A stretch of 64,000 nucleotides of DNA from Cenarchaeum sp. (GTDB lineage: Archaea; Thermoproteota; Nitrososphaeria; Nitrososphaerales; Nitrosopumilaceae), in contig OZ242221.1 of the NCBI GenBank assembly GCA_965206845.1, forward strand, positions 384,001 to 448,000, read 5' to 3'. The first letter of the stretch is position 1; each line of letters opens with the position of its first letter. The notes under the pieces are model-generated. The model was not told the DNA's origin and ran no database searches. It saw only the letters and a program-made list of their open reading frames with translations. Positions 15,818 to 31,698 of the stretch are shown here, in pieces. The position numbers and the translations under genes were made by a program.

Positions 15818-16774
15818 TTAGCTTATCGCAAGCATCCGCTCTATGGCCAGGCGCGCCCTGTCTGCCGTCTCCTGGGGAACCTTGACCTCGAACCGGTCAC
15901 GGACCAGCGAGTCGTGCACCCCCTCCAGCGTGATCATCTTCATGTACCGGCACTCCGCCTGGTCCGATGCCGCGGCAAAGTTCTTGCCGGGGTTCTGCTT
16001 TCTCATCCTGTGGAGTATGCCGGTCTCCGTGGCGACCACAAAGTTCCTTGATTTTGACTCCTTGGCATGGCGCATCATGCCCTCGGTGGAGAGCACATGC
16101 AGGTTCTCCCCGGCAAACCTTCCCGATGCCACGTCATACATTATCGGAGTGGTGCAGCCGCACTCCGGGTGGATCATAAACTCCGCCTCGCGCATAGAGT
16201 CAAGCTTCCTCTTCACGTCATCAGGCGTTATTCCCGCATGCACGTGGCACTCGCCTGCCCAGATGTACATGTTCTTTCGCCCGGTCATCTTGGAGACGTA
16301 CGATCCCAGAAACATGTCCGGCAAAAAGAGGATCTCCCTGTCTGCGGGTATGGCCTGCACGACACTCACCGCGTTGGATGACGTGCAGCAGTAGTCAAGC
16401 TCCGCCTTGACTTCTGCCGTAGTGTTGACATATCCCACCGCTATGGCATCAGGGTGCCGCCCCTTCCACTGCCGCAGGTCCTCTGCGGTTATCGTGTCAG
16501 ACAGCGAGCAGCCTGCCTCCAGGCTTGGAATCAGGATCCTCTTGTCCGGGGATATGATCGAGGCGGTCTCTGCCATAAAGTGTACCCCGCAAAACACTAT
16601 GACCTTGCTGTCGGTTCTGGCAGCCTGCCTTGCAAGCCCCAGGGAGTCGCCGACAAAGTCTGCCACGTCCTGCACGTCCGGAATCTGATAGTTGTGGGCA
16701 AGGATCACCGCGTCCCGCTCCCCCTTTAGCCTGATGATCTCGTCGCGCAGCGCGGATGTTTGCTGTACCAGCAT
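15818..16774 (-). CDS. nadA: Quinolinate synthase
   Basis: LAHNYQ, GDS, FCGVHFMAE, AGCS, YVNT, CHVH, HPEC, CRYMK. Confidence 0.95.
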   Translation of the reverse strand: MLVQQTSALRDEIIRLKGERDAVILAHNYQIPDVQDVADFVGDSLGLARQAARTDSKVIVFCGVHFMAETASIISPDKRILIPSLEAGCSLSDTITAEDLRQWKGRHPDAIAVGYVNTTAEVKAELDYCCTSSNAVSVVQAIPADREILFLPDMFLGSYVSKMTGRKNMYIWAGECHVHAGITPDDVKRKLDSMREAEFMIHPECGCTTPIMYDVASGRFAGENLHVLSTEGMMRHAKESKSRNFVVATETGILHRMRKQNPGKNFAAASDQAECRYMKMITLEGVHDSLVRDRFEVKVPQETADRARLAIERMLAIS

Positions 16775-16875: not shown

Positions 16876-17708
16876 CTACGTTCCCACCCTGATCCCTTCG
16901 GAGCATATCCTGCGCAGCATCTCGACTGCAGACAGGGCGGCCAGACGGCTGGTCTTGGGGTTGTCCTGGTCGGGGACGTTCTCTGTGAGGAACGTCATCC
17001 TGCCAAACCGCCCCCGCGCCTCGATCCTGTGGGAGTTTTTTGTGGCAGAGGGATCCGCCACGATACTCACCTCCGTCCTCTGCGCCCCGAGGCCCGCCAG
17101 GCTGAGAAGGGCGGCCACGTTGATGTTGGCAGGGAACATGGAGACTGCGTTCCGGGCCGGGCCGCGGAATATGGTTGTGGGCTTGGTGATCTCATCGGCG
17201 GACATGTCGAGGGCCGCGAAGAACTTGGCGCCCCGGAGCGAGTCGGGGTGCTTTGTGGTGGTAAGCGTGACCTCCTCCAGCTCGGACCGAACAGACGCAA
17301 GCCCGTCAAGTCCCGCAATGGCACCGGAGGGGAGGTAGATGGTCCTTCCAAACTCCCTGCACGCGTCCTCCAGAACCGCAAAGACCGACTCGTCAAGCAG
17401 GGCCCCGGCGCTCATGATCATGAGATCCTTCCTGTTCTGCAGCACGCTTAGCGCCGCGTCCCTCACCGCATCCTGGGATGCCGCCTCCACCACCAGGTCT
17501 ATGCTCTGGGAGGACAGCAGGTGGTGGTTTGCAACAAGCTGCGGCTTTTTTTGCAGTCTTGAGATCAGGCGGTGTGCCCGCTCGGCTGACGCGTCATACA
17601 CGTGGGTCAGTGCGGCAGCTGCAGTGCGGCAGGTATCTCCCCCGAGTCTATTGCCAGCGCAATCCGGGTGCCTATGGCGCCGCACCCAAGAAGGCCTATC
17701 CGTTTCAA
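16876..17708 (-). pseudogene. nadX: L-aspartate dehydrogenase, frameshifted by a 14-bp insertion near codon 29
   Basis: The N-terminus MKRIGLLGCGAIG (TTG at 17708) is in one frame and LTHVYD...EAAS...SGAIAGLD...FPANINVA...NPKTS is in another. The junction carries the duplication cagtgcggcag-ctg-cagtgcggcag (17608-17632). Confidence 0.8.
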
Positions 17709-17825
17709 TGCGCAAGCTGCCACACGGTTCCTAATTAACTGGATCCGCGCCCTGTCAGGCGCAGGAGCCCTTCCCGGGCGTGCGCCTTCATGCCCGGGCA
17801 GGGGAATGTAGCCACACACTCAGGA

Positions 17826-17869
17826 TAGTCTGCACAGTAAGCATACTAATGACACTGTCCTTAATAATT
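17826..17869. promoter_or_regulatory. Putative operator shared with the CARF-wHTH/PIN locus
   Basis: 17826-17851 matches the reverse complement of 30934-30959 at 23/26 nt, and both are followed at equal spacing by taataatt. Confidence 0.55.
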
Positions 17870-17989
17870 CGTCAGCCCGCATCCAAGTATGCAGCCGTTA
17901 CGGAGGTCGACTCCAAGACCAATTGAGTTAAAAGTGCACGGGGGGCAGCCTCGCATGATGCCTACGCGCGACCGGAGGGGGACATAACC

Positions 17990-19090
17990 TTGCCTAGCAG
18001 CCCCATGGAGTCCCTGGCCAGGGAGCTGGGAGGGCAGATAAGCGGCGTGGAGCACGACGACATCCTTCTTGGTTCCGGAGAGCACGGGTACAGGATAAGG
18101 CCAGAGGGATTCGTTGCGATAGTGCCAACGGATGCTCCCAAAAGGATTGCCGTGGTGGACGGGGGCAACGGCCGGCTTGAGGAGACGGCCAGCTTTTCTG
18201 TCATGATCAACCGCACCTACTTTTCGCTGTTCAAGGGGAAGAGGAGAGAGAGGCCAAGGACCAGATCCCGAATAGAGTTCTTCTCCACGACGGTAGTCAG
18301 CATACCCAAGGGCGAGGCAAAGGACAGGATCAAGTACAGCATCAGACTGTATCCCCAAAAGCCCGAGGATGCGGAGTATCTGCCCGATGCGGCGGACCTG
18401 CACCAGGACAGGAGCTATCCGGGATTCCACGAGCTGACTCAGGTAGACTCGATGGCCAGGAGGTTTGCGGAGTGGAGAATGGCCGCGCATGTGACAAGGG
18501 CCGAGCTGACCGGCGGGGACATACTGATAATGGACGGCTCCCTGCAGACTGGCTTTAAGAGGGAGAAGAGGTACGCAGACGTGCTGTACGATGAGGCCGT
18601 GGAGAAAGGAGTGACAGTGTGCGGCCTGTCAAAGACCAGCATGATGCTTACGGAGTCCGGCGAGTCCCTGCTGGCCAGGGTGGAGGAGATATCCAAGGAG
18701 GCCGGACATGGCATGTGGTACGTAAAGGTGGCCGACAGGGCCTCGCCCGACGGCAGAGTCATGGTGCTGGTGGCAAAGTTTCATCCAAGGTCGGAGTTTG
18801 TTTTCAGGATTGAGATGCTCCGCGACCAGTTCCAGGATATGGACGCAGGCAAGATCAACGACATACTCTCAAGCATAGCCGCAAACGCAGAGGACATCTC
18901 GATGCTGGGATACCCGTACGCGGCAATTGACGCGGACAGGTTTGCGCAGGTGCGCAACAACGAACTGGAAATGTACAAGAGCATGCTGCGCTCTGAGACC
19001 GTAAACGTTCCGGAGCTGGACTGGGAGAGGATCTACAGGTACCGCAACGCACTGACCGCACACGAAAGGCTAAACGAGGTGACCAGCTGA
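17990..19090 (+). CDS. nurA: NurA 5'-3' nuclease
   Basis: AVVDGGN, LIMDGSL, GLSKTS, GYPY...AD..A; directly upstream of herA. Confidence 0.85.
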
Positions 19091-20640
19091 TGGGCGCAGA
19101 TGACGGCGTGATAGGCCAGGTGGTCGGCGGAAAGTTTGGCGACGTGATCATACGCCAAAAGGCCGGAACCACCCTGGAGATCGGCTCTCTGCTGGTGTCT
19201 GACGAGGGAAACGGCTTTGTAATCCTCCAGGTGTTTGCCCTGGAATACGCCTCGCAGATTCAGGACAGGATACAGCAGATGCGATCCAGTATCAATCTGG
19301 AGCAGGGAGTCGAGGCCAAGTTTTACGAGCCCGAGTTTGTCAACTACGTGCTTGCCAGGATGAAGCAGATGGCCAGAATCTCAAGCTCAGATCAGGTCAG
19401 CATTCCAAAGAGCCTTCCGACGTTCTTCAACAAGCTGCGGCCGATCTCCAAGGACGATCTGGGCTTTCTGCAGAAGAGAGAGGGAGACATATTTGTGGGC
19501 CACATCAGAAGCGGCACCAAAGTAATCGAGGATGCAGGCGTCTGGCTTCCCGCAGAGGACGTGTTCGCGCACCACATTCTGATTCCCGCCGCCACCGGCC
19601 GGGGAAAGTCAAACCTTGTAAAGACCATACTGTATCACACCATGGACTCAAACAGGGTCGGCGCCTTGGTGCTTGACGCGCACGACGAGTACTATGGAAG
19701 GCATGGCCCCGGGCTCAAGGATCATCCCGATGCAAGGGACAACTTGGAGTACTATACCGCAGAGGATCCCCCACCGGGCGCAAACATGCTGGCCATAAAC
19801 CTGCAGTCGATAAGGCCAGAGCACTTTGAGGGAATCGTGGAGCTCAGCGAGGCACAGGAGAGGGCCATGCGGATGCTATACATGAAGTACAGAAAAGGGT
19901 GGATATCTGCCCTGATGCTTACCGACCCCAGCGCGGCAGAGGACGAGACTGCCGCAAGCACCAGGGCCGTGCTCAAGAGGAAGGTGCAGCTTGTCCTTGG
20001 CCTGGATGTGGACGATGAGGGCAACCTGATCTCGGCTCACAACGTGTTTGACTCTGGAACCAAGGGATTCAAAACGGTGGACCAAGTGGTGCAGCACATC
20101 GAGCAGGGAAGAGTGGTGGTTCTGGACACCTCGCGGCTGGGCGACGAGGCAGAGCTGATAGTCGGAAACATCATCGCCACCAGGCTCCTGCGCAGGTACA
20201 AGCTTCACAAGGCGCGGGGGCAGCTTGCAGACAAGCCCGTGGCAACCATCGTCATCGAGGAGGCGCCCAGGGTCATCGGGGAGGATGTGCTGGCATCAAA
20301 CGGCAACATTTATGCCACCATTGCAAAGGAGGGCCGCAAGTTCAAGATCGGCCTCACCGCAATAACCCAGCTCAGCAGCGTAATACCCAAGACGATACTG
20401 GCAAACATGAACACAAAGATAGTTCTCGGAAACGAGATGAGGCAGGAGCGGGCCGCCATCATCGCGTCGTCCTCGCAGGATCTCTCCGATGACGACAGGA
20501 ACATCGCAAGCCTGGACAAGGGCGAGGCAATAGTCACAAGCATCTTTGTCCCCTTTGCCATGCCCGTCAAGATTCCGCTGTTTGAAGATTTGATAAAGGG
20601 GCGCGCCCCAAGGCGCCAAAAGACGATGAGGGTGCCGTAG
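19090..20640 (+). CDS. herA: HerA helicase/translocase
   Basis: HAS-barrel-like N-terminus, Walker [14 protein letters not shown], Walker [17 protein letters not shown]. Confidence 0.92.
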
Positions 20641-21891
20641 TTGGGACGGTTCGCCCACCTTGCAGACGTGCACCTGGGGTTCCAAAAGTTTGACAGCCTC
20701 AAAAAGATCGAGCAGGACGCGTTTGAGGGCATAGTCTCCCAGTGCATATCCAGAAGGGTGGACTTTGTGCTGGTATGCGGCGACCTGTTCCACGTGAACA
20801 TCCCAGACATGGGGACAAACACGTTTGCCTTTGAGCAGTTCCGCCGGCTAAAGGAGTCCGGAATTCCGGTCTACGCGGTGTACGGCAGCCACGACTTCTC
20901 CCCCGTCTCAAAGTCCATAATCGATCTGCTCCAAGCGGCAGGCCTGATTACCAAGGTCACAATTCCGGAGGGCGCCAGCGGCAAGACAAGACTCGGGTTC
21001 ATAACCGATCCCAAAACCGGCGCAAAGATTACAGGGCTTCCAGGCCTCAAGGCCGGAAGGGAGAAGGACCTTTATGAGAACCTCGACAGGGAGGCCCTCA
21101 AAGCCGAAGAGGGCTTTAAGATATTCCTGTTCCACGGGGCCATAAGCGAGCTCGTCTCCGATACCCACGGCGACAGCATGGCCCTCTCACTGCTTCCGCC
21201 GGGGTTTGAGTACTACGCCGGAGGCCACCTGCACAAATACACACCCAGGGAGTATCCTGACTATCCCCACGTAATCTATCCCGGGACGCCGTTCTGCGGA
21301 TATCACAGTGACCTGGAGTACAACGCCCGGGGAGGAAAGCGCGGATTTGTCCTAGTTGACTTTGATGACAGGGTAACAGACGTGAAGTTTGTGGTGATTG
21401 AAAACGCAAAGTACGAGATCATAGACACGAACTGCAATAACAGAAACTCGATCCGCGTTGATGCCGAACTGCGCGACTGCGCAAAAAACATCAACCCGCA
21501 GGGCAAGATCATCATAATAAAGCTTGCAGGCGAGCTCAGCACGGGAAAGACCGCAGATATCGACACCACGGAGGTAAAGGGCGGGCTGATGGAGGCAGGG
21601 GCGCTGGCCGTGAACATCCACAAAAACCAGCTGACATCCAAAGAGTACAACATAACCGGGGTAAAGGGAAAGAACCGGGAAGAGATCACGCACAACATAT
21701 TCGCAGAGAACATCGGAGAGGTAATAACCCGCCAAGAGGAGCTTGCAGGCGAGTCCGGGGTGTCGCTGGCAAAAAGACTGCTTGAGGAACTGGCGCAGCC
21801 CAAACAGGACAACGAGAAGAAGCGGGAGTATGAGGAGCGAGTCGACAGCAGGGCACTAGGTGCGATGGAGATAGACATCAATGATTCTTAA
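20641..21891 (+). CDS. mre11: Mre11 nuclease
   Basis: [27 protein letters not shown]. Confidence 0.92.
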
Positions 21892-24319
21892 CTACATAAA
21901 ACTGGAGAACATCAGGAGCTATGCCGAGCAGGAGATCACGCTTCCCAGAGGCACCACGCTCTTTGGGGGCGACATCGGCTCCGGAAAATCCACAATTCTC
22001 ATGGGAATAGAGTTTGCCCTGTTCGGCCTGGGATCGCAGAAGGGCAGCGGCCTCCTGTCAAAGAGGAAGGACCACGGCAGCGTCACGCTGGACTTTGAGG
22101 TGGAAGGGCGCCTCTACCAAGTCACGCGCGGCCTGATACGCCGCAATGGCGCGGTATCACAGGACTCCAAAAGATCGCACCTCTGGGAGGATGGTGTAGA
22201 GGAGGCGCTGTCGCCCACCGATCTCAAGCAGAGGATACTAAAGATTCTCGGATTCAACGAACCGCCAAACCCGCGCGCGGAGAGCAGGATCTTCAGGTAT
22301 GCCGTATTCACGCCGCAGGAGGAGATAAAGCACATCCTGAGCGACCCAAGGGACAGACTGGAGACGATCCGCAAGGCCTTTCGCATAGAGGATTATCGGG
22401 ACGCAACAGAGAATGCAGGGCGCGTTGCCGCCCTGCTAAAAGCGCGTACCCGCGTACTCAAGGAGAGGTTCAGGAACCTGGAGGAGCTGAAGGAGAGGCT
22501 CGCCGGCATCACGGATGATATCCGCCGGACAGATGCCAGCATAAGCAGCAAGAAGGAAAAGATAGAGGAGGCAGAGGGCCAGAAGAGAAGTCTGGTGCTT
22601 GAGCAGCAGGGTCTAAAGGAACGGGAAAACGAGGCAGCAAATTTAAAACTGAAGAGAAGAGAGATTGAAGGCGAGATCAGGCTCCACAGTGGGAACGCAA
22701 GGACACTCCAGGCCAAAATACAAAAGTCAGATGAGAGCATCGCCAAAATCCAGACCGAGATCGCCAGACTGGAGAGCAAGAGGCCGCCCACCAGCATGAC
22801 CATGGACCAGCTGAACTACGCAATTGGCCGGCGCTCTGAACTGAGGGCAGAGGAGCGAGGCACGGCATCGCTCATAGGAACGACATCCGCCAGAATAGCA
22901 GACCTGGAGAGAAGGCTGGGGACGCAAAGAGACCGGGACGCAGACGAGCTAAGGAAGGCGATCTCCGAGGCGACATCACAGATTGAGGAATCAGCCAGGA
23001 GGCTAGGAACAATAGACAGCAGGATTAGCGAGCTGAAGGAGGCAGAAGGGATGTTCAAAGGCCAGGTAATGGCAGGCCAGGACGAGCTTGACAGCATTGC
23101 AGGGCTGGGAGCCAGATGCCACACATGCAAAAGCGAGATCACAGCAGAGCACAAGAACCGGCTCGAGTCAGGGATACGGAGCAGGATCCGTGAGGCACAA
23201 AACAGCATCGCAGGGATCACTCAGGAACTAGGGGGGAACAGGTCCGAGAAGGCCAGGCTGGAAGGCGAGACAAGCCAAGACAGGGGAAGCATCAATGCCA
23301 TGGAACGCACCATACCGGATCTGGAGGAGCTGCCCAAGAAGAGGGCCGAGCTGCAGGAGTTGAGGCTGCAGCAAGACAAGATACAGAGCCAGTATGCGGC
23401 CATATCAGAAGAGTTTCCGGACCTGCCGGCGAGCATAACCGACGGCGAGCTGTCGTTGCTCAGGAGAGGGCTCCAGGACTACCAGAGCGCCCAGAACAGC
23501 CTAAAGTACCTGAGGGACAATTTGGAGAGGACACGCGGGGATAGAGAGACGGCAGAACAGGAGAGAGAGTCCGCACACAAGAGAATACAGGAATGCGAAT
23601 CCGACATGGAAGCCACCGACGAGCAGCTGAAGTCATTTGAGGGGATTGCAGGCAAGATGGCAGAGCTTGACCGCGAAATCGAGATCCTTGCAAGAAGCAT
23701 CAGCAGAAGCAACGGAGACATTCGCGCGCTAGAAGAGAGGAAGAGTGCAGATGAGGAGAAGAAGCGCGAGCACGATGCGCAGATTGACGAGGCCAAAAGA
23801 TGGAGGAGTGTGCATGAACGGATCAGCGGCCACCAGAGGTGGATAGAGGACTATTTTATTCCCGCCACCAGGCAGATAGAGAGGCAGGTCATGCTCTCCA
23901 TCCAGCAGCAGTTCAACGACACGTATCGCAGATGGTACTCCATCATGATCGAGGATCCGTCAAAGGAGACGAGGATAGACGAGAACTTTGCCCCCATTGT
24001 GGAGCAGGACGGGTTTGAACAGGAGATCGGCTTTCTCTCCGGCGGCGAGAAGACCGGGATAGCCCTGGCCTACCGGCTTACGCTGAACGCGCTGATGAGA
24101 AGTGAGACCGAAAGCATGAAGTCCAACCTCCTGATTCTTGATGAACCCACGGATGGGTTCTCAGACGGTCAGCTCCACAAGATGAAGGAGGTTCTGGACG
24201 AGATGAGATCAGAGCAGACAATCCTGGTATCGCACGACCGTGAGCTTGAGACCTTTGCAGACAGCGTCTTTGACGTGTCAAAGGAGAGCGGCGAGTCAAG
24301 AGTGGTTCCCCACCAATGA
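21881..24319 (+). CDS. rad50: Rad50 ATPase
   Basis: Walker A GDIGSGKST, long coiled coil with central CHTC zinc hook, LSGGE, ILDEPT, VSH. Confidence 0.93.
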   Translation: MILNYIKLENIRSYAEQEITLPRGTTLFGGDIGSGKSTILMGIEFALFGLGSQKGSGLLSKRKDHGSVTLDFEVEGRLYQVTRGLIRRNGAVSQDSKRSHLWEDGVEEALSPTDLKQRILKILGFNEPPNPRAESRIFRYAVFTPQEEIKHILSDPRDRLETIRKAFRIEDYRDATENAGRVAALLKARTRVLKERFRNLEELKERLAGITDDIRRTDASISSKKEKIEEAEGQKRSLVLEQQGLKERENEAANLKLKRREIEGEIRLHSGNARTLQAKIQKSDESIAKIQTEIARLESKRPPTSMTMDQLNYAIGRRSELRAEERGTASLIGTTSARIADLERRLGTQRDRDADELRKAISEATSQIEESARRLGTIDSRISELKEAEGMFKGQVMAGQDELDSIAGLGARCHTCKSEITAEHKNRLESGIRSRIREAQNSIAGITQELGGNRSEKARLEGETSQDRGSINAMERTIPDLEELPKKRAELQELRLQQDKIQSQYAAISEEFPDLPASITDGELSLLRRGLQDYQSAQNSLKYLRDNLERTRGDRETAEQERESAHKRIQECESDMEATDEQLKSFEGIAGKMAELDREIEILARSISRSNGDIRALEERKSADEEKKREHDAQIDEAKRWRSVHERISGHQRWIEDYFIPATRQIERQVMLSIQQQFNDTYRRWYSIMIEDPSKETRIDENFAPIVEQDGFEQEIGFLSGGEKTGIALAYRLTLNALMRSETESMKSNLLILDEPTDGFSDGQLHKMKEVLDEMRSEQTILVSHDRELETFADSVFDVSKESGESRVVPHQ

Positions 24320-24366: not shown

Positions 24367-24927
24367 TTATTCGCTCGTAATGGGCGAGTTGAGTATCTTA
24401 TTCTTCTTGGGTGGCAAGCCCATCGCGCCTTTGGCAGTCAGCTCGTACCCGGTGGGTGGCCTGCGCTGCGTATCGCACGGCAGGTTGTCTGGGTTTATGC
24501 AGGCGCAGTGGGCCTGACCGGCGGCCTTGGCCAGTCCCTTGTCGCATGTGACCAGGGTTGTCTTTTTGTCCCTGGCAAAGACAAGGATATCGCTGTCTCC
24601 CGTATGCAGGGTCGCGTAGCGCTTCTCCAGCCGTTTTGCCTCGGTGTGCTGCAGGTGGGTAATCTGCTCATATCGGACCGGCGCCTTCAACCGACGGAAG
24701 ACAAGATCCTCGATGGTGGCGTAGTCATAGCCGTGCCGGGATGCTTCTTCGAGCGCCTTTGAGGTTACAACAACGTACGAGTCCTCAAAGCCGATGCGGC
24801 ACGACAGGGAGACCGCAAAGTTTTCGTTGTCACAGATGCGCCTGAGGACGCATGTATCCAGAACATAGCCGGTTTTGCCGGCAGTTTTCATACTTTCGAA
24901 CATACCATCATGTGGTTTTATTATCAT
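24367..24927 (-). CDS. PIN-domain ribonuclease (start could be at 24903 or 24891)
   Basis: VLDTC, EE, HTGD..IL.FA, LVTCD: all four PIN acidic positions are present. Confidence 0.75.
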   Translation of the reverse strand: MIIKPHDGMFESMKTAGKTGYVLDTCVLRRICDNENFAVSLSCRIGFEDSYVVVTSKALEEASRHGYDYATIEDLVFRRLKAPVRYEQITHLQHTEAKRLEKRYATLHTGDSDILVFARDKKTTLVTCDKGLAKAAGQAHCACINPDNLPCDTQRRPPTGYELTAKGAMGLPPKKNKILNSPITSE

Positions 24928-25111
24928 ATAAGGTTATCTCCATATTTTATAACAACTAGATCTATTTTTAAATACATATAAAATATGGTTATTACATATA
25001 AAGATGTCAATTACACGCGTTCCAATCTTACATACGTTTTAACACGACCTTATTTGGTCAAAATATCAATTGTAAATACAGTATTTATACGAGTATTCAA
25101 TATAATAGGTA
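24928..25111. promoter_or_regulatory. Very AT-rich divergent control region with palindromes and repeats
   Basis: 12-bp inverted repeat ccatattttata/tataaaatatgg (24940-24951, 24977-24988); direct repeat tacatataaa (24973, 24993); palindrome taaatac-a-gtattta (25073-25087). Confidence 0.6.
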
Positions 25112-27139: not shown

Positions 27140-27340
27140 GTGGTTTAATAGTTGATCAGGGAATTATATACAAAAGTACACAGTACCTTTGCCTTTTGCT
27201 GGCGCTCTTGCACTGCCTCCCACGCTTGGCTCTCGCGTGCTGTTTGCGGAACGCGCGGGAGCAATCCCGCGCTGACTTCTCGCGCCTTCAGACGACAATC
27301 CCTGCCGCCCTGCCGCCACGGCTTCCGCCCTGGAGGCAAT
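27140..27340 (-). ncRNA. Predicted omegaRNA/reRNA scaffold plus flanking guide
   Basis: The region after RuvC-III overlaps the element end, as in TnpB systems, and contains an 8-bp hairpin gcgcggga-N4-tcccgcgc (27253-27272). Boundaries are inferred. Confidence 0.45.
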
Positions 27341-29076
27341 GTTATGCGCGGCATTCACGTCCGCGTCGATGTCATTGTAACACTTGTCATTGGTGCAGCG
27401 GAACTCCCCCCGCGACACCCTGGATTCCTTGTCCTTGCGCCCGCAGGCGCTGCATGTTATGCTCGTCCCCTTGGGGTCCACCATTATCACGGTGACGCCC
27501 GCGTTCTTGCAGGCGCCCTTTATCTGGCGCTGGAACGTGCCCGGCCTCGAGTAGGCCATCTCGCGGTTGAGCCCCGTCTTTGCCGAGCTTCCCTTGCCCT
27601 TTACCTTGGCTGTCATGTTGTTGAGGTCCAGATCCTCCATAACCACCGTTCCCGCGCCGTCCGCTATCTTCTTGGAGGCGTGCCTTTCCCAGTTCGTCTG
27701 GCGGTTGGCTATCTTTTCCCTCTTTTTCCGGATCCTCCTGTGGAGTTCCTTGTAGCCCCTTGACTTTGGCTTCCTCGGCTTGTTCCTGTTGTGGCCGCTG
27801 GTGTTGTTCTTGGTGTCGCCGTTGGTGCCGGTACCACCGTCCGCGCCCTCGCTTACGCCGTCCGCGCCCTCCTTGGCGTCCTGCCTGATCCTGCGGTTGC
27901 CGCGTCCCCCGCGCTTCCGTGAGAGCTCCGAGTACATTTTCGATATGTCGTCGTTCTTGGAGCGCCTGCAGCCCTTGGGGAGGTCATAAAACGCGTGGCT
28001 GCCCGTGTCCAGGTCGACTGTGGCGGCGCCATGGACTATGCCCATATCGACCCCGCGTACGGTGCCGGATTCCGATGACTCTGGAGCCCTGGTTTTGACC
28101 TGGATGTGGAGCCTGTATGTCCTGTTGTGGCTCTCGGTGCGCTTGGTCGTCTTCTTCGTGGTCTCGACGAGCTGGAAGGATCGCATGTCCAATCCCTCCA
28201 CGTTGCCGTGCACCCTCACGGTGCCTATGGCGGGAAGGTGCAGCAGGCCGTTGCCCTTGTACACGGGACGCTTGAACACAGTTAGGGCCTTCGTTTCCCC
28301 CTTTTTGCTGAACAGGGTGTCCCTGAAGCGCCACTTGTTCCTCTTGTTGCTCCACTTGTTGGACGGCAGGTTGGGCGCGGTGTCGATGTCCTTGACGCCC
28401 TCCTTTTCCCTGTATTTCCTGGCCAGGTACTTCCATAATGACTTGTTGCGGCGCTTTTTGCCGTTTGACTTCATGAACTTCTTTACCGCGTCCAGGCCCT
28501 GCTGGAGCCCCGCCCTCTGCACCCTGCTGTCGCAGGCCTCCCTGAGTCCTGCTGCCGGCGCGTCCTCGTCGTGTACGAGCCACGCCCTCCCGTCCCTCCA
28601 TTTGGTGAGCATGCTGTTGAGGTCGAACTTGGTTGTCCTCGGGTCGTTGAGCTTCTCCTTGACTGCCATGTTGAATGCCCACCTCTGCTGGTCCATGTGA
28701 CGGGATATGAGATCCGACAGCTCTCCGGACTGGTCAAAGTCCACCTTTATGGTGCGCACCATGGAGCCCTCCATTGAGCGCCTTGGCCACTTTTTTGGCT
28801 TCTGCGGCGCCGTAGATGCCGCTGTTGGGGTTGCAGCTGCAGGCGCTGTTGCCGCCATTCTGGCTTTCATCTCTACAGGAACATACCACGTGTTGCATAA
28901 AAGGTGACGCGGCGCCGCCGCGCCGGCCGTCAGCCCTGCAATGGCGACCGATGCCGTTGTGCGGCCCGTGCGGTTCCGGCCGTCATGGTTGCCGCGCGGG
29001 CGCCGCGCAATGGAAGCGCGCCCGACGTGAAGCCGAAAAAGTGTAGAAGGCCGGTGTACTTTTGTATATAATTCCC
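27159..29076 (-). mobile_element. Non-autonomous TIR transposon carrying only tnpB
   Basis: Perfect 23-bp TIRs gggaattatatacaaaagtacac (27159-27181 and reverse complement 29054-29076); 8-bp direct repeat gttgatca on both flanks (27151-27158, 29077-29084). Confidence 0.92.
27164..28870 (-). CDS. tnpB: RNA-guided endonuclease TnpB, 568 aa
   Basis: RuvC-I RGVDMG, RuvC-II VVMEDL, TSITCSACG...FRC...C zinc finger, RuvC-III DADVNAAHNI. TATA-like ttttatg lies about 26 nt upstream of ATG 28870, and the stop codon lies inside the TIR. Confidence 0.9.
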   Translation of the reverse strand: MKARMAATAPAAATPTAASTAPQKPKKWPRRSMEGSMVRTIKVDFDQSGELSDLISRHMDQQRWAFNMAVKEKLNDPRTTKFDLNSMLTKWRDGRAWLVHDEDAPAAGLREACDSRVQRAGLQQGLDAVKKFMKSNGKKRRNKSLWKYLARKYREKEGVKDIDTAPNLPSNKWSNKRNKWRFRDTLFSKKGETKALTVFKRPVYKGNGLLHLPAIGTVRVHGNVEGLDMRSFQLVETTKKTTKRTESHNRTYRLHIQVKTRAPESSESGTVRGVDMGIVHGAATVDLDTGSHAFYDLPKGCRRSKNDDISKMYSELSRKRGGRGNRRIRQDAKEGADGVSEGADGGTGTNGDTKNNTSGHNRNKPRKPKSRGYKELHRRIRKKREKIANRQTNWERHASKKIADGAGTVVMEDLDLNNMTAKVKGKGSSAKTGLNREMAYSRPGTFQRQIKGACKNAGVTVIMVDPKGTSITCSACGRKDKESRVSRGEFRCTNDKCYNDIDADVNAAHNIASRAEAVAAGRQGLSSEGARSQRGIAPARSANSTREPSVGGSARAPAKGKGTVYFCI

Positions 29077-29183
29077 GTTGATCACACCGGGGGTTTGCTG
29101 CTTCCGCCCCGGGGCACTCTGCCCTGGCGCGGCCCGGGCAGCAGACAGAATACATTAAATGAATCCAGACACAGGGATACACC

Positions 29184-30263: not shown

Positions 30264-30479
30264 CCGCGGTTCCCCAAACGGCACACCCTGCGGCAGGGCC
30301 CGCAGCGGTCTTTTGCGGCACCAGAAACAGCGCGGCCTGGGCCCGATGGCAGGCGGCGCCGGATTCGGCGCCACATCGTGTAAAAAAAAAATATGCCGCA
30401 TCAGCGGCTGCGGTAGATCAGGGGGTCTTCGTCGTCGTCAAACTCCCGTATTATGCGCGGGAAGAATCCCTTGGACATC

Positions 30480-30895
30480 TCAGATACCCCCTACCTCTGA
30501 CGGGCGGAACGATGCGACCCCGACCCACTGGGACACGCGGTGAAGATCTTCGTCCCGCGTCACAAGGGGGAGGCTCCTCTCACGGCAGAATGCCAGGATA
30601 CGGTTGTCGCCGTGGTGGCACATGTGGTACCTGGAGCTCAAGCGCTCTGCCTCGGCGATGTGCCGTTCCTCTATTGAGATCACGTCCACCTCCCGCCCAA
30701 GGAGTCTCTGAATCCTTGCGGATATGCTGTGCACATCAAATCCACGACCTTCTTTGCCTCGCGGCACACCACGTCGGTCAGCACGAACCTGATCGACTTG
30801 CCGCGGAGCCGTCTGCGCATCTTCTGGGCAAAGATGTCAGCCTCCATGATGTCGATCACCATGCAGGTATCAAGCACAACTTGTCTTTGTGTCAT
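30480..30895 (-). pseudogene. PIN-domain ribonuclease with a 1-nt frameshift near 30746
   Basis: MTQRQVVLDTC...REAKKV is in one frame and RGFDVH...EAERL..RY...HHGDNRIL.F...LVTRD is in another; paralogue of 24367..24927. Confidence 0.75.
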
Positions 30896-30936
30896 GAGTA
30901 TAATGGGTCGAAAGCAATTATTATATACCGTTACAT

Positions 30937-30950
30937 TAGTATGCATACTA
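30937..30950. promoter_or_regulatory. Perfect 14-bp palindrome TAGTATGCATACTA, putative autoregulatory operator
   Basis: Lies between ttatata (30921-30927) and the ATG at 30961, in the 65-bp divergent spacer. Confidence 0.65.
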
Positions 30951-30960
30951 TACAGACTAA

Positions 30961-31698
30961 ATGAACAAACCAAACCTGCGAATCCACATCGCTCCCGTCG
31001 GCTACGAGATTGACAGGATCGTGCTTCCCGCAAGGGAGAGGCGGGCCGACCGGGTCTACCTAATGGTACACGAGAATCCGGGACAGGACAGGGCGCTCGG
31101 GTTCATCGAGGCGGTAAAGGAGAGGCTGGAGGAGCAGAGTATCGAGGTCAGGACGGCAGACCACGACCGCCTGGATCTCTTCAGCATCATAAAGGCGGTC
31201 AAGGAGATAATAAGAGGCGAGTGTGGCAACAACGTCTATGTCAACCTGGCCTCGGGATCCAAGATTCAGGCCGTCGGAGGCATGATGGCATGCATGATGT
31301 TCAACGAGGAGAACAACGTGATACCGTTCTATGTGGAGGCAGAGGAGTACGCGAGCCCCCAGAACGAGCAGAGCTCAAGCGGGATCAGGGAGATCATGGA
31401 CATTCCCCCATACGAGATTCAAAAGCCGGCAGAGAGGCTGATCAGGGCGCTAAGGATAGTGCGTGACAAGGGGAGGATCAGCAAGAAGGAGATGGCCGAC
31501 CTGTGCGACGAGGAGGGAATAATCAAGGTGGATCCAAAAAAGACGAGTCGCTCCCAGGCGCTGTTCACAAGCCTGGACATGAACATAATACAGCCGCTAA
31601 AGGTCCAGTGGGGGTTTATAGAGGAGGAGAAGATCGGCAGAAACCGCTGGCTTGAGATTACCGAGGATGGCAAGAATGCCGCAAAGTTTCTGATCTAG
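30961..31698 (+). CDS. CARF-like Rossmann + winged-HTH transcription regulator (DUF6293/HFX_2341-like)
   Basis: HIAPVGYEIDRI, ADRVYL, CARF-type VNLASGSK, C-terminal wHTH ISKKEMA...KIGRNRWLEITEDG. Confidence 0.8.
   Translation: MNKPNLRIHIAPVGYEIDRIVLPARERRADRVYLMVHENPGQDRALGFIEAVKERLEEQSIEVRTADHDRLDLFSIIKAVKEIIRGECGNNVYVNLASGSKIQAVGGMMACMMFNEENNVIPFYVEAEEYASPQNEQSSSGIREIMDIPPYEIQKPAERLIRALRIVRDKGRISKKEMADLCDEEGIIKVDPKKTSRSQALFTSLDMNIIQPLKVQWGFIEEEKIGRNRWLEITEDGKNAAKFLI

Follow-up and report, generated by a model that had tools for sequence, protein, structure and literature searches.

The element at 17.8 kb of the analysed window, ahead of the nurA-herA-mre11-rad50 operon, probably duplicates, in working form, the promoter module that belongs to an orphan Csa3-like regulator encoded at 30.9 kb and, judged from its sequence, would link this break-repair operon to the regulator. 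The window is the whole stretch of DNA that was analysed (64,000 nucleotides, bases 384001-448000 of a single-contig genome of 1.65 Mb with 57% G+C and 99.99% completeness), and window positions are used throughout unless genome positions are stated. An archaeal AmoA is encoded by the genome, and the host was therefore taken to be an ammonia-oxidising archaeon. To our knowledge, it is uncharted how ammonia-oxidising archaea control their DNA-repair genes at the level of transcription, and we know of no bacterial SOS system in these organisms. The original prediction had proposed that a ligand-sensing CARF-wHTH regulator may co-control a PIN nuclease, end-resection genes and/or NAD synthesis; this regulon idea was partly supported, namely as regards PIN and the repair operon, but not for nadX or for a CRISPR-derived signal.

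Direct alignment of the two sites gave 23 identities over 26 bases when 17826-17851 was set against 30934-30959 in reverse complement. In both copies, TAATAATT follows 10 bases after the 26-mer and is identical at 8/8 positions, and the perfect palindrome TAGTATGCATACTA is located at 30937-30950, before the regulator's ATG at 30961. All three features had been described in the original prediction and were recovered as described, and its gene assignments around both sites were confirmed using Pfam. A gapless local alignment of the two copies extended over 44 bases with a score of 43, compared with a maximum of 25 in 200 shuffles, by which a chance origin of the likeness was ruled out. Identity amounted to 31/34 in the operator plus TATA and to 4/10, which is the chance level, in the 10-base spacer. 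When up to three mismatches were allowed, the 14-base palindrome occurred five times in the window (0.68 expected), and all but one of these occurrences fell within the two sites. In the operator, two half-sites form an inverted pair (TAGTAT..ATACTA), and a third, direct half-site follows 9 bases on.

The genome-wide motif scan suggested as a check was performed with a matrix constructed from 18 operators of other genomes, to which no site of the window's own genome and no nurA-upstream site contributed. The regulator promoter scored 29.0 bits and the 17.8-kb site, as the second best in the whole genome, 25.6 bits, both far above the best scores obtained from 20 block-shuffled genomes (mean 10.3 bits, maximum 16.1 bits). 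The order was unchanged with an 8-site matrix, which gave 27.7 bits for the regulator promoter, 25.7 bits for the 17.8-kb site, and 13.6 bits for the next match.

The protein encoded at 30961..31698 on the plus strand (245 aa) was identified as a Csa3-like CARF-wHTH regulator of the DUF6293/HFX_2341 family on the basis of Pfam searches, a structure model, and a fold match, in agreement with the CARF-wHTH identity proposed for it. Both Pfam domains of the family were found: HFX_2341_N (PF19810, E-value 3e-38, 131.4 bits versus a gathering cut-off of 30) and, at residues 148-243, the C-terminal DUF6293_C wHTH (PF22665, 6e-18, 65.5 bits versus a cut-off of 27). Weaker matches were obtained to Csa3_N (4e-7) and CARF_Card1 (0.005). 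An AlphaFold model generated from 13 homologues (pLDDT 89.4) displayed an N-terminal Rossmann-like CARF fold and a C-terminal winged helix, the C-terminus being helical with a hairpin. When the model was searched with Foldseek, the best PDB match was Csa3 with cA4 (6wxq_A, E-value 1.2e-8), and the top matches comprised Csa3, Csm6, Can2, Card1, and ring nucleases; a PDB search with the regulator sequence returned no match below an E-value of 0.1. The regulator family was detected in 111 of 301 genomes of the class; from the window's own family, 180 genomes were sampled, and 104 of them had it. These tallies include the unpublished genomes G157, G247, and G298, which were counted only in the numbers.

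The predicted operator of the regulator itself (30934..30960, plus strand) comprises the palindrome and the third half-site CAGACTA, and lies next to an AT-rich TATA block, AATTATTATATA, at 30917..30928, which is common to the two divergent units and conserved in orthologous promoters. In nine other genomes, the orthologue promoters consist of AATTATTATATA, 8 bases, ATAGTATGCATACTRTASATACTAT, and the start codon, and in a second set of loci, a site of 34-43 bits was found beside the regulator start in 13 of 14. Both sets together place the operator at the regulator promoter in 21 distinct genomes besides the window's own; in the same-genus genome G001, the regulator operator has diverged. The 30.9-kb site, with its position and sequence kept across genomes, thereby behaves as the regulator's predicted operator. 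The RNA evidence consisted of sponge metatranscriptome contigs (32 pieces listed), which show neither starts nor strand and give hints at most; among the pieces listed, the contig at the regulator starts at 30963. Binding of the site by a different protein, for which the Csa3-like gene would be only one target, was judged quite unlikely. It takes its weight from the fact that the site was putatively assigned to the regulator protein by its position at the regulator's own promoter. Nevertheless, the site accompanies the regulator gene in those 21 other genomes, an operator is absent upstream of the distant paralogues L022 and L023, and the inverted repeat suits a dimeric wHTH protein, imperfect palindromes being bound by the CARF-wHTH relative Csa3a (PMC5587795).

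Divergent from the regulator, a PIN-domain gene was located at 30480..30895 on the minus strand, in which the Pfam PIN match lies on the C-terminal frame and a one-base frameshift follows position 30745. In the RNA-library contigs of X3, X4, and X6, an extra G behind 30745 yields a single frame of the 138-aa PIN type, while the contig of X8 has the assembly version; the frameshift is either a strain polymorphism or an assembly error. In 7 of 11 loci, an intact PIN orthologue of 136-141 aa lies beside the regulator and is transcribed away from it. In two genomes PIN is separated from the regulator, and a full copy of the TATA block plus operator was kept with PIN in both: in G002 (locus L036), the PIN-side operator differs by one base from the regulator's own operator, and in G014 (locus L015), the module is located at 726-768. 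These retained modules support in silico that the predicted 30.9-kb operator also serves the divergent PIN gene, and the proposed co-control of a PIN nuclease was in this sense borne out. Between the centre of the AT block common to both units and the ATG of PIN there are 27 bases, the usual leaderless distance in this genome, and the PIN contig pieces extend to 30899 among those listed from the sponge metatranscriptome.

A tiny gene of 25 aa (..FFPRIIREFDDDEDPLIY..) follows PIN at 30401..30478 on the minus strand, with its ATG 2 bases past the PIN stop codon. At 11 further loci, homologous acidic ORFs of 25-43 aa are transcribed away from the regulator. This conserved micro-protein, noted here and in loci L110-L119, has the motif (F/Y)PRIIREF(D/E)D..EP.MYG, is apparently unannotated, and in most cases forms the regulator's divergent partner. 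A third near-perfect operator was observed in G002 (L041:1501-1713, one mismatch to the search pattern) before a 51-aa ORF (MKNAEFGHK...), for which no homologue was found in the window's own genome; this site suggests possible lineage-specific additions to the regulon.

The operator copy ahead of nurA was delimited to 17825..17851 on the minus strand, where it reads in the regulator direction as an imperfect inverted repeat with the third half-site 9 bases on. A TATA-like box, TTAATAATT, is found at 17861..17869 on the plus strand, 11 bases after the 25-base operator, and is a putative distal promoter of the nurA operon. The operon extends over 17990..24319 on the plus strand and consists of nurA (17990-19090), herA (19090-20640), mre11 (20641-21891), and rad50 (21881-24319), which were assigned using the Pfam families NurA, HerA (DUF87), Metallophos, and Rad50-type AAA_23/SMC_N and whose ORFs abut or overlap. 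A proximal TATA-like sequence, TTAAAAG, was read at 17929..17935 (plus strand), about 58 bases before the nurA start, and GGAGGGGG is present at 17975-17982, followed by the nurA TTG at 17990. Counterparts of the proximal box were found in G002 (TTAATAAAG, at a similar distance to nurA) and also in genomes of genus g13. Since a proximal box also precedes nurA, the TTAATAATT of the module would be a distal promoter; by its sequence, the proximal box could suffice alone for nurA. The nurA contig pieces reach as far up as 17913 (X8, 17913-18367) and 17941 (X6), before the proximal box, and none of the pieces listed covers 17699-17912 or 30900-30962. Gaps at these two intervals would fit untranscribed promoter DNA. 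The further AGTATGCA core reported at 17886-17893 is present, but G124, G289, and G195 have not conserved it; it may be due to chance, and its function is doubtful.

On the other side of the 17.8-kb site, nadX (aspartate dehydrogenase, 16876-17715) and nadA (15818-16774) were assigned on the minus strand using Pfam. The nadX gene has a TTG start at 17708 with its N-terminus in another frame, and a TATA-like box at 17732-17738 (minus strand) that is centred 27 bases before the TTG. Across the genome, 8-mers made up of A and T only are most frequent 25-29 bases ahead of start codons, and most mRNAs are therefore leaderless. The original prediction had included control of nadX and NAD synthesis, and the orientation of the module is the one that would suit such control, given that it points to nadX as it does to the regulator's own gene; moreover, nadX-nadA and the nurA operon adjoin each other in divergent orientation, as they also do in G002, G273, and G137. 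However, nadX has its own TATA-like box at the standard leaderless distance and the operator lies 118 bases beyond it, and none of the nadX contig pieces listed extends beyond 17698. What lies upstream of the nurA site also varies: it is nadX here, terminase-/portal-like ORFs (by eye) in G124, and a small zinc-ribbon-like ORF in G289, the site being retained in both of the latter, while in G002 and G273 nadX adjoins nurA without any site. As these upstream neighbours differ, the site belongs to nurA-herA-mre11-rad50 and not to nadX, and control of nadX-nadA, alone or together with nurA, was considered very unlikely. The split of nadX into two frames was traced to 17594-17621, where an apparent 14-base tandem duplication (gccgcactgcagct, then gccgcactg) is found. 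Contigs of X4, X6, and X8 lack those 14 bases at 17608, by which the nadX frame is restored, and X3 has the assembly version.

For a first phylogenetic footprinting, 15 genomes of the family were sampled. NurA and HerA were detected in three only (G001, G002, and G014), and no operator was found ahead of nurA in them (best scores 3.6 bits in G001, -9.9 bits in G014, and -15.2 bits in G002). A lineage-specific copy or relic was favoured after this step and was overturned by a wider genome sample. In the 301 genomes of the class, HerA was present in 63, both HerA and the regulator family in 44, and the regulator without herA in 67 (odds ratio of co-occurrence 5.9, related genomes not being independent). 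The starts of the regulator and herA were no more than 12 kb apart in 12 of the 44 genomes and no more than 16 kb apart in 15 (7 genera, 2 families). Because the regulator is found without herA in 67 genomes, repair is not its core target. A NurA search of metagenomes returned no relative.

For the wider footprinting, 13 neighbourhoods in which the regulator is near herA were taken, and G167 was left out because the region upstream of nurA was outside its locus. A nurA-upstream operator was recovered in three genomes of genus g13, with scores of 30.2 bits (G124), 36.7 bits (G289), and 30.8 bits (G195) and distances to nurA of 126, 125, and 123 bases, respectively, compared with 141 bases in the window's own genome. 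All four modules have equal orientation and 11 bases to TTAATA, the same spacing as in the regulator module, and in an alignment of the five sequences the invariant columns fell within the operator and TAATA. A palindromic site upstream of the nurA/herA promoter was found in silico, in sum, in the window's own genome, G124, G289, and G195, and the proposed co-control of end-resection genes gained in silico support from the module ahead of nurA in the three g13 genomes. No site of at least 10 bits preceded nurA in G104, G116, G273, G170, G137, G231, G128, G190, and G147; overall, 16 regulator-bearing genomes were examined and 4 had the nurA-upstream site, and 5 of 8 g13 genomes examined were without it.

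These results also bear on whether the 17.8-kb copy is a neutral relic of a duplicated or deleted regulator promoter with no function. Lack of conservation, named at the outset as a sign of such a relic, is indeed seen in the nearest relatives, as neither the same-genus G001 nor G002 and G014 have a copy before nurA, but it does not extend to genus g13. The relic reading further accommodates the absence of a gene on the regulator side of the 17.8-kb copy and the TTAG and CAGACTA carried by both window copies, states unseen in other genera and expected after duplication in the lineage. It does not account for the same module orientation, TTAATA spacing, and nurA distance in three genomes of another genus, nor for a likeness of the window copies that is limited to the operator and TATA, and no coding remnant of the regulator or PIN was seen beside the 17.8-kb copy when three frames on each side were read. 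A relic was accordingly rated unlikely, and a working promoter module remained the preferred reading.

A genome-wide mismatch scan placed the 26-mer in five further locations, about 50 bases before the ATG of paralogous tnpB genes encoding 550-620 aa, and all five lie within the conserved left end, of about 240 bases, of TnpB transposons. A profile of this left end identified about 13 full copies in the genome and about 20 copies of the outer 115 bases, which form inverted terminal repeats. The family has 19 matches in the genome, and the window itself holds one copy, which separates rad50 from the regulator (27158-29078, with tnpB at about 27164-28870 on the minus strand and inverted 115-base terminal segments at 27158-27297 and 28925-29078). 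The left ends were observed to consist of 2-7 degenerate tandem 9-mers with a consensus of about CCATGCAGA, and protein identity among the family's copies is no more than 56-75%, an unusual degree of divergence for an insertion sequence. A small repeat protein was tried as an explanation of the 9-base periodicity and dropped, given that a G+C content of 57% makes long open frames common and that a family match was not obtained. A search of five transposon loci against Rfam returned SRP RNA only, which is unrelated.

New here is the occurrence of a 36-base patch of the nurA site within the left ends of two TnpB transposons (L002:5267-5292 and L003:438-463, genome positions 1049766-1049791 and 1189737-1189762), with a weaker third occurrence at L004:446-471 (974170). 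The patch is positioned 18 bases upstream of the tnpB TATA-like box and is oriented as for PIN and nurA. It matches the left ends at 1049766 and 1189762 at 30 of 36 bases (z = 12.6 and 11.7, 300 shuffles), and it takes in 3 bases at one edge and, at the opposite edge, the first 7 bases of the spacer, which are absent from the regulator promoter. On these grounds, together with the abundance of the family and its copy inside the window, the 17.8-kb site could be viewed as a fragment of a transposon left end. This was regarded as extremely unlikely: a search (nhmmer) with the whole left-end profile found nothing at 17.8 or 30.9 kb at E <= 10, the TnpB copies at 748k and 1008k bear no likeness to the site (z about 0), and the transposon sites score 10-12 bits with the family-wide matrix, within the shuffled-genome range, versus 25.6 bits at 17.8 kb. 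Furthermore, the spacing of TAATAATT at 17.8 kb is that of the regulator module and not that of the transposon, and the nurA-upstream module is also present in G124, G289, and G195; a search of 25 relatives, a set to which these three genomes do not belong, gave no match to the TnpB family. The 36-base patch was instead read as having putatively passed, in one direction or the other, between the promoter of nurA and a single sub-lineage of the transposon.

With the 17.8-kb element taken as a second promoter module, we infer binding by the regulator, the sign of regulation, and the type of ligand along the following lines. A regulator dimer would bind the operator. At the regulator's own gene, where the operator lies between the shared TATA block and the ATG, the bound dimer would hinder RNA polymerase, resulting in autorepression. 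For the unit of PIN and the tiny protein, the operator is positioned 10-11 bases upstream of the shared TATA block and would act at the upstream edge of the TATA/BRE region, and nurA would have the same partner-side geometry as PIN (operator, 11 bases, TTAATA). This position is that of Csa3a activation at nurA/herA in Sulfolobus, an analogy which suggests that the site is tied to the distal promoter of the repair operon and is most likely activating. The site and promoter box shared by the regulator and the repair operon suggest a common regulator for both, as is known for a related regulator in Sulfolobus. The ligand sensed by the CARF-like domain would be a small molecule other than a CRISPR type III product. 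Searches of the 99.99% complete genome with TIGR02578, TIGR02577, and TIGR00287 (csm1, cmr2, cas1) gave no match, neither cas1 nor cas10 thus being found, while controls were matched, and the regulator showed no CRISPR-cas association; there is therefore no known type III source of cyclic oligoadenylates, and a CRISPR-made signal, which had been among the ligands proposed, is unlikely.

The regulon had been proposed as possibly undescribed. Its link to nurA/herA was already known from Csa3a of Sulfolobus islandicus, and what is new is its probable occurrence in a CRISPR-less lineage. According to the available text of PMC5587795, the palindrome bound by Csa3a is imperfect and directly precedes promoters, and the nurA-herA and herA-mre11-rad50-nurA operons are activated by the protein, with EMSA and expression data; the text of PMC7515695 describes activation of DNA-damage-response genes as well. 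The regulator shares with Csa3a the two-domain CARF-wHTH architecture, Csa3 being its best fold match, and a palindrome upstream of a nurA/herA promoter, which is a prediction here and has been described for Csa3a (PMC5587795). It differs in belonging to the PF19810/PF22665 family, with only a weak Csa3_N match and no PDB match by sequence, in the lack of CRISPR-Cas in its genome, in the operator sequence, and in its core partners, which are the PIN gene and the acidic peptide of 25-43 aa and not cas genes.

The second relative, HFX_2341 of Haloferax mediterranei, is presented in the available text of PMC11434293 as a chromosomal transcriptional regulator that is conserved in species without CRISPR, is Csa3a-like by HHpred, and acts mainly as a repressor, globally on transport and metabolism genes and on cas genes upon over-expression; this counts against the activating sign suggested for the nurA site by analogy with Csa3a. 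It belongs to the same Pfam family (DUF6293) as the regulator but is longer (308 versus 245 aa), and neither an operator nor a nurA/herA link is reported in that text. A literature search on the regulator family in ammonia-oxidising archaea yielded no paper other than this Haloferax study and unrelated texts.

The conserved operator with its defined architecture makes the regulon directly testable. If the proposed link is true, the connection between a Csa3-type sensor regulator and NurA/HerA exists independently of CRISPR, which suggests that this class of proteins may have been linked to repair before it was linked to cas genes. A broader reading appears doubtful at present: the regulator would govern a CRISPR-less, ligand-sensing 'nuclease alarm' regulon (PIN, the acidic micro-protein, and NurA-HerA-Mre11-Rad50), and two TnpB transposons would have copied the nurA operator patch upstream of the tnpB TATA. 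If this is true, the copied patch would wire the RNA-guided nuclease TnpB to the host recombination-repair response, on which TnpB-assisted transposon retention depends.

Several minor features were noted around the operon. Two G+C-rich hairpins, GCGCC..GGCGC and CCCGGGC..GCCCGGG, are located at 17745-17806, between the nadX TATA-like box and the operator. A second PIN-domain gene (24367-24927, minus strand; Pfam PIN, 7e-5) lies just downstream of rad50 and is followed by an AT-rich spacer of 180 bases with a weak operator-like match at 25069-25093 (8.6-10.4 bits). In genus g13, a full copy of the module was found just past rad50, in the position equivalent to this spacer, and extra copies are present elsewhere too.
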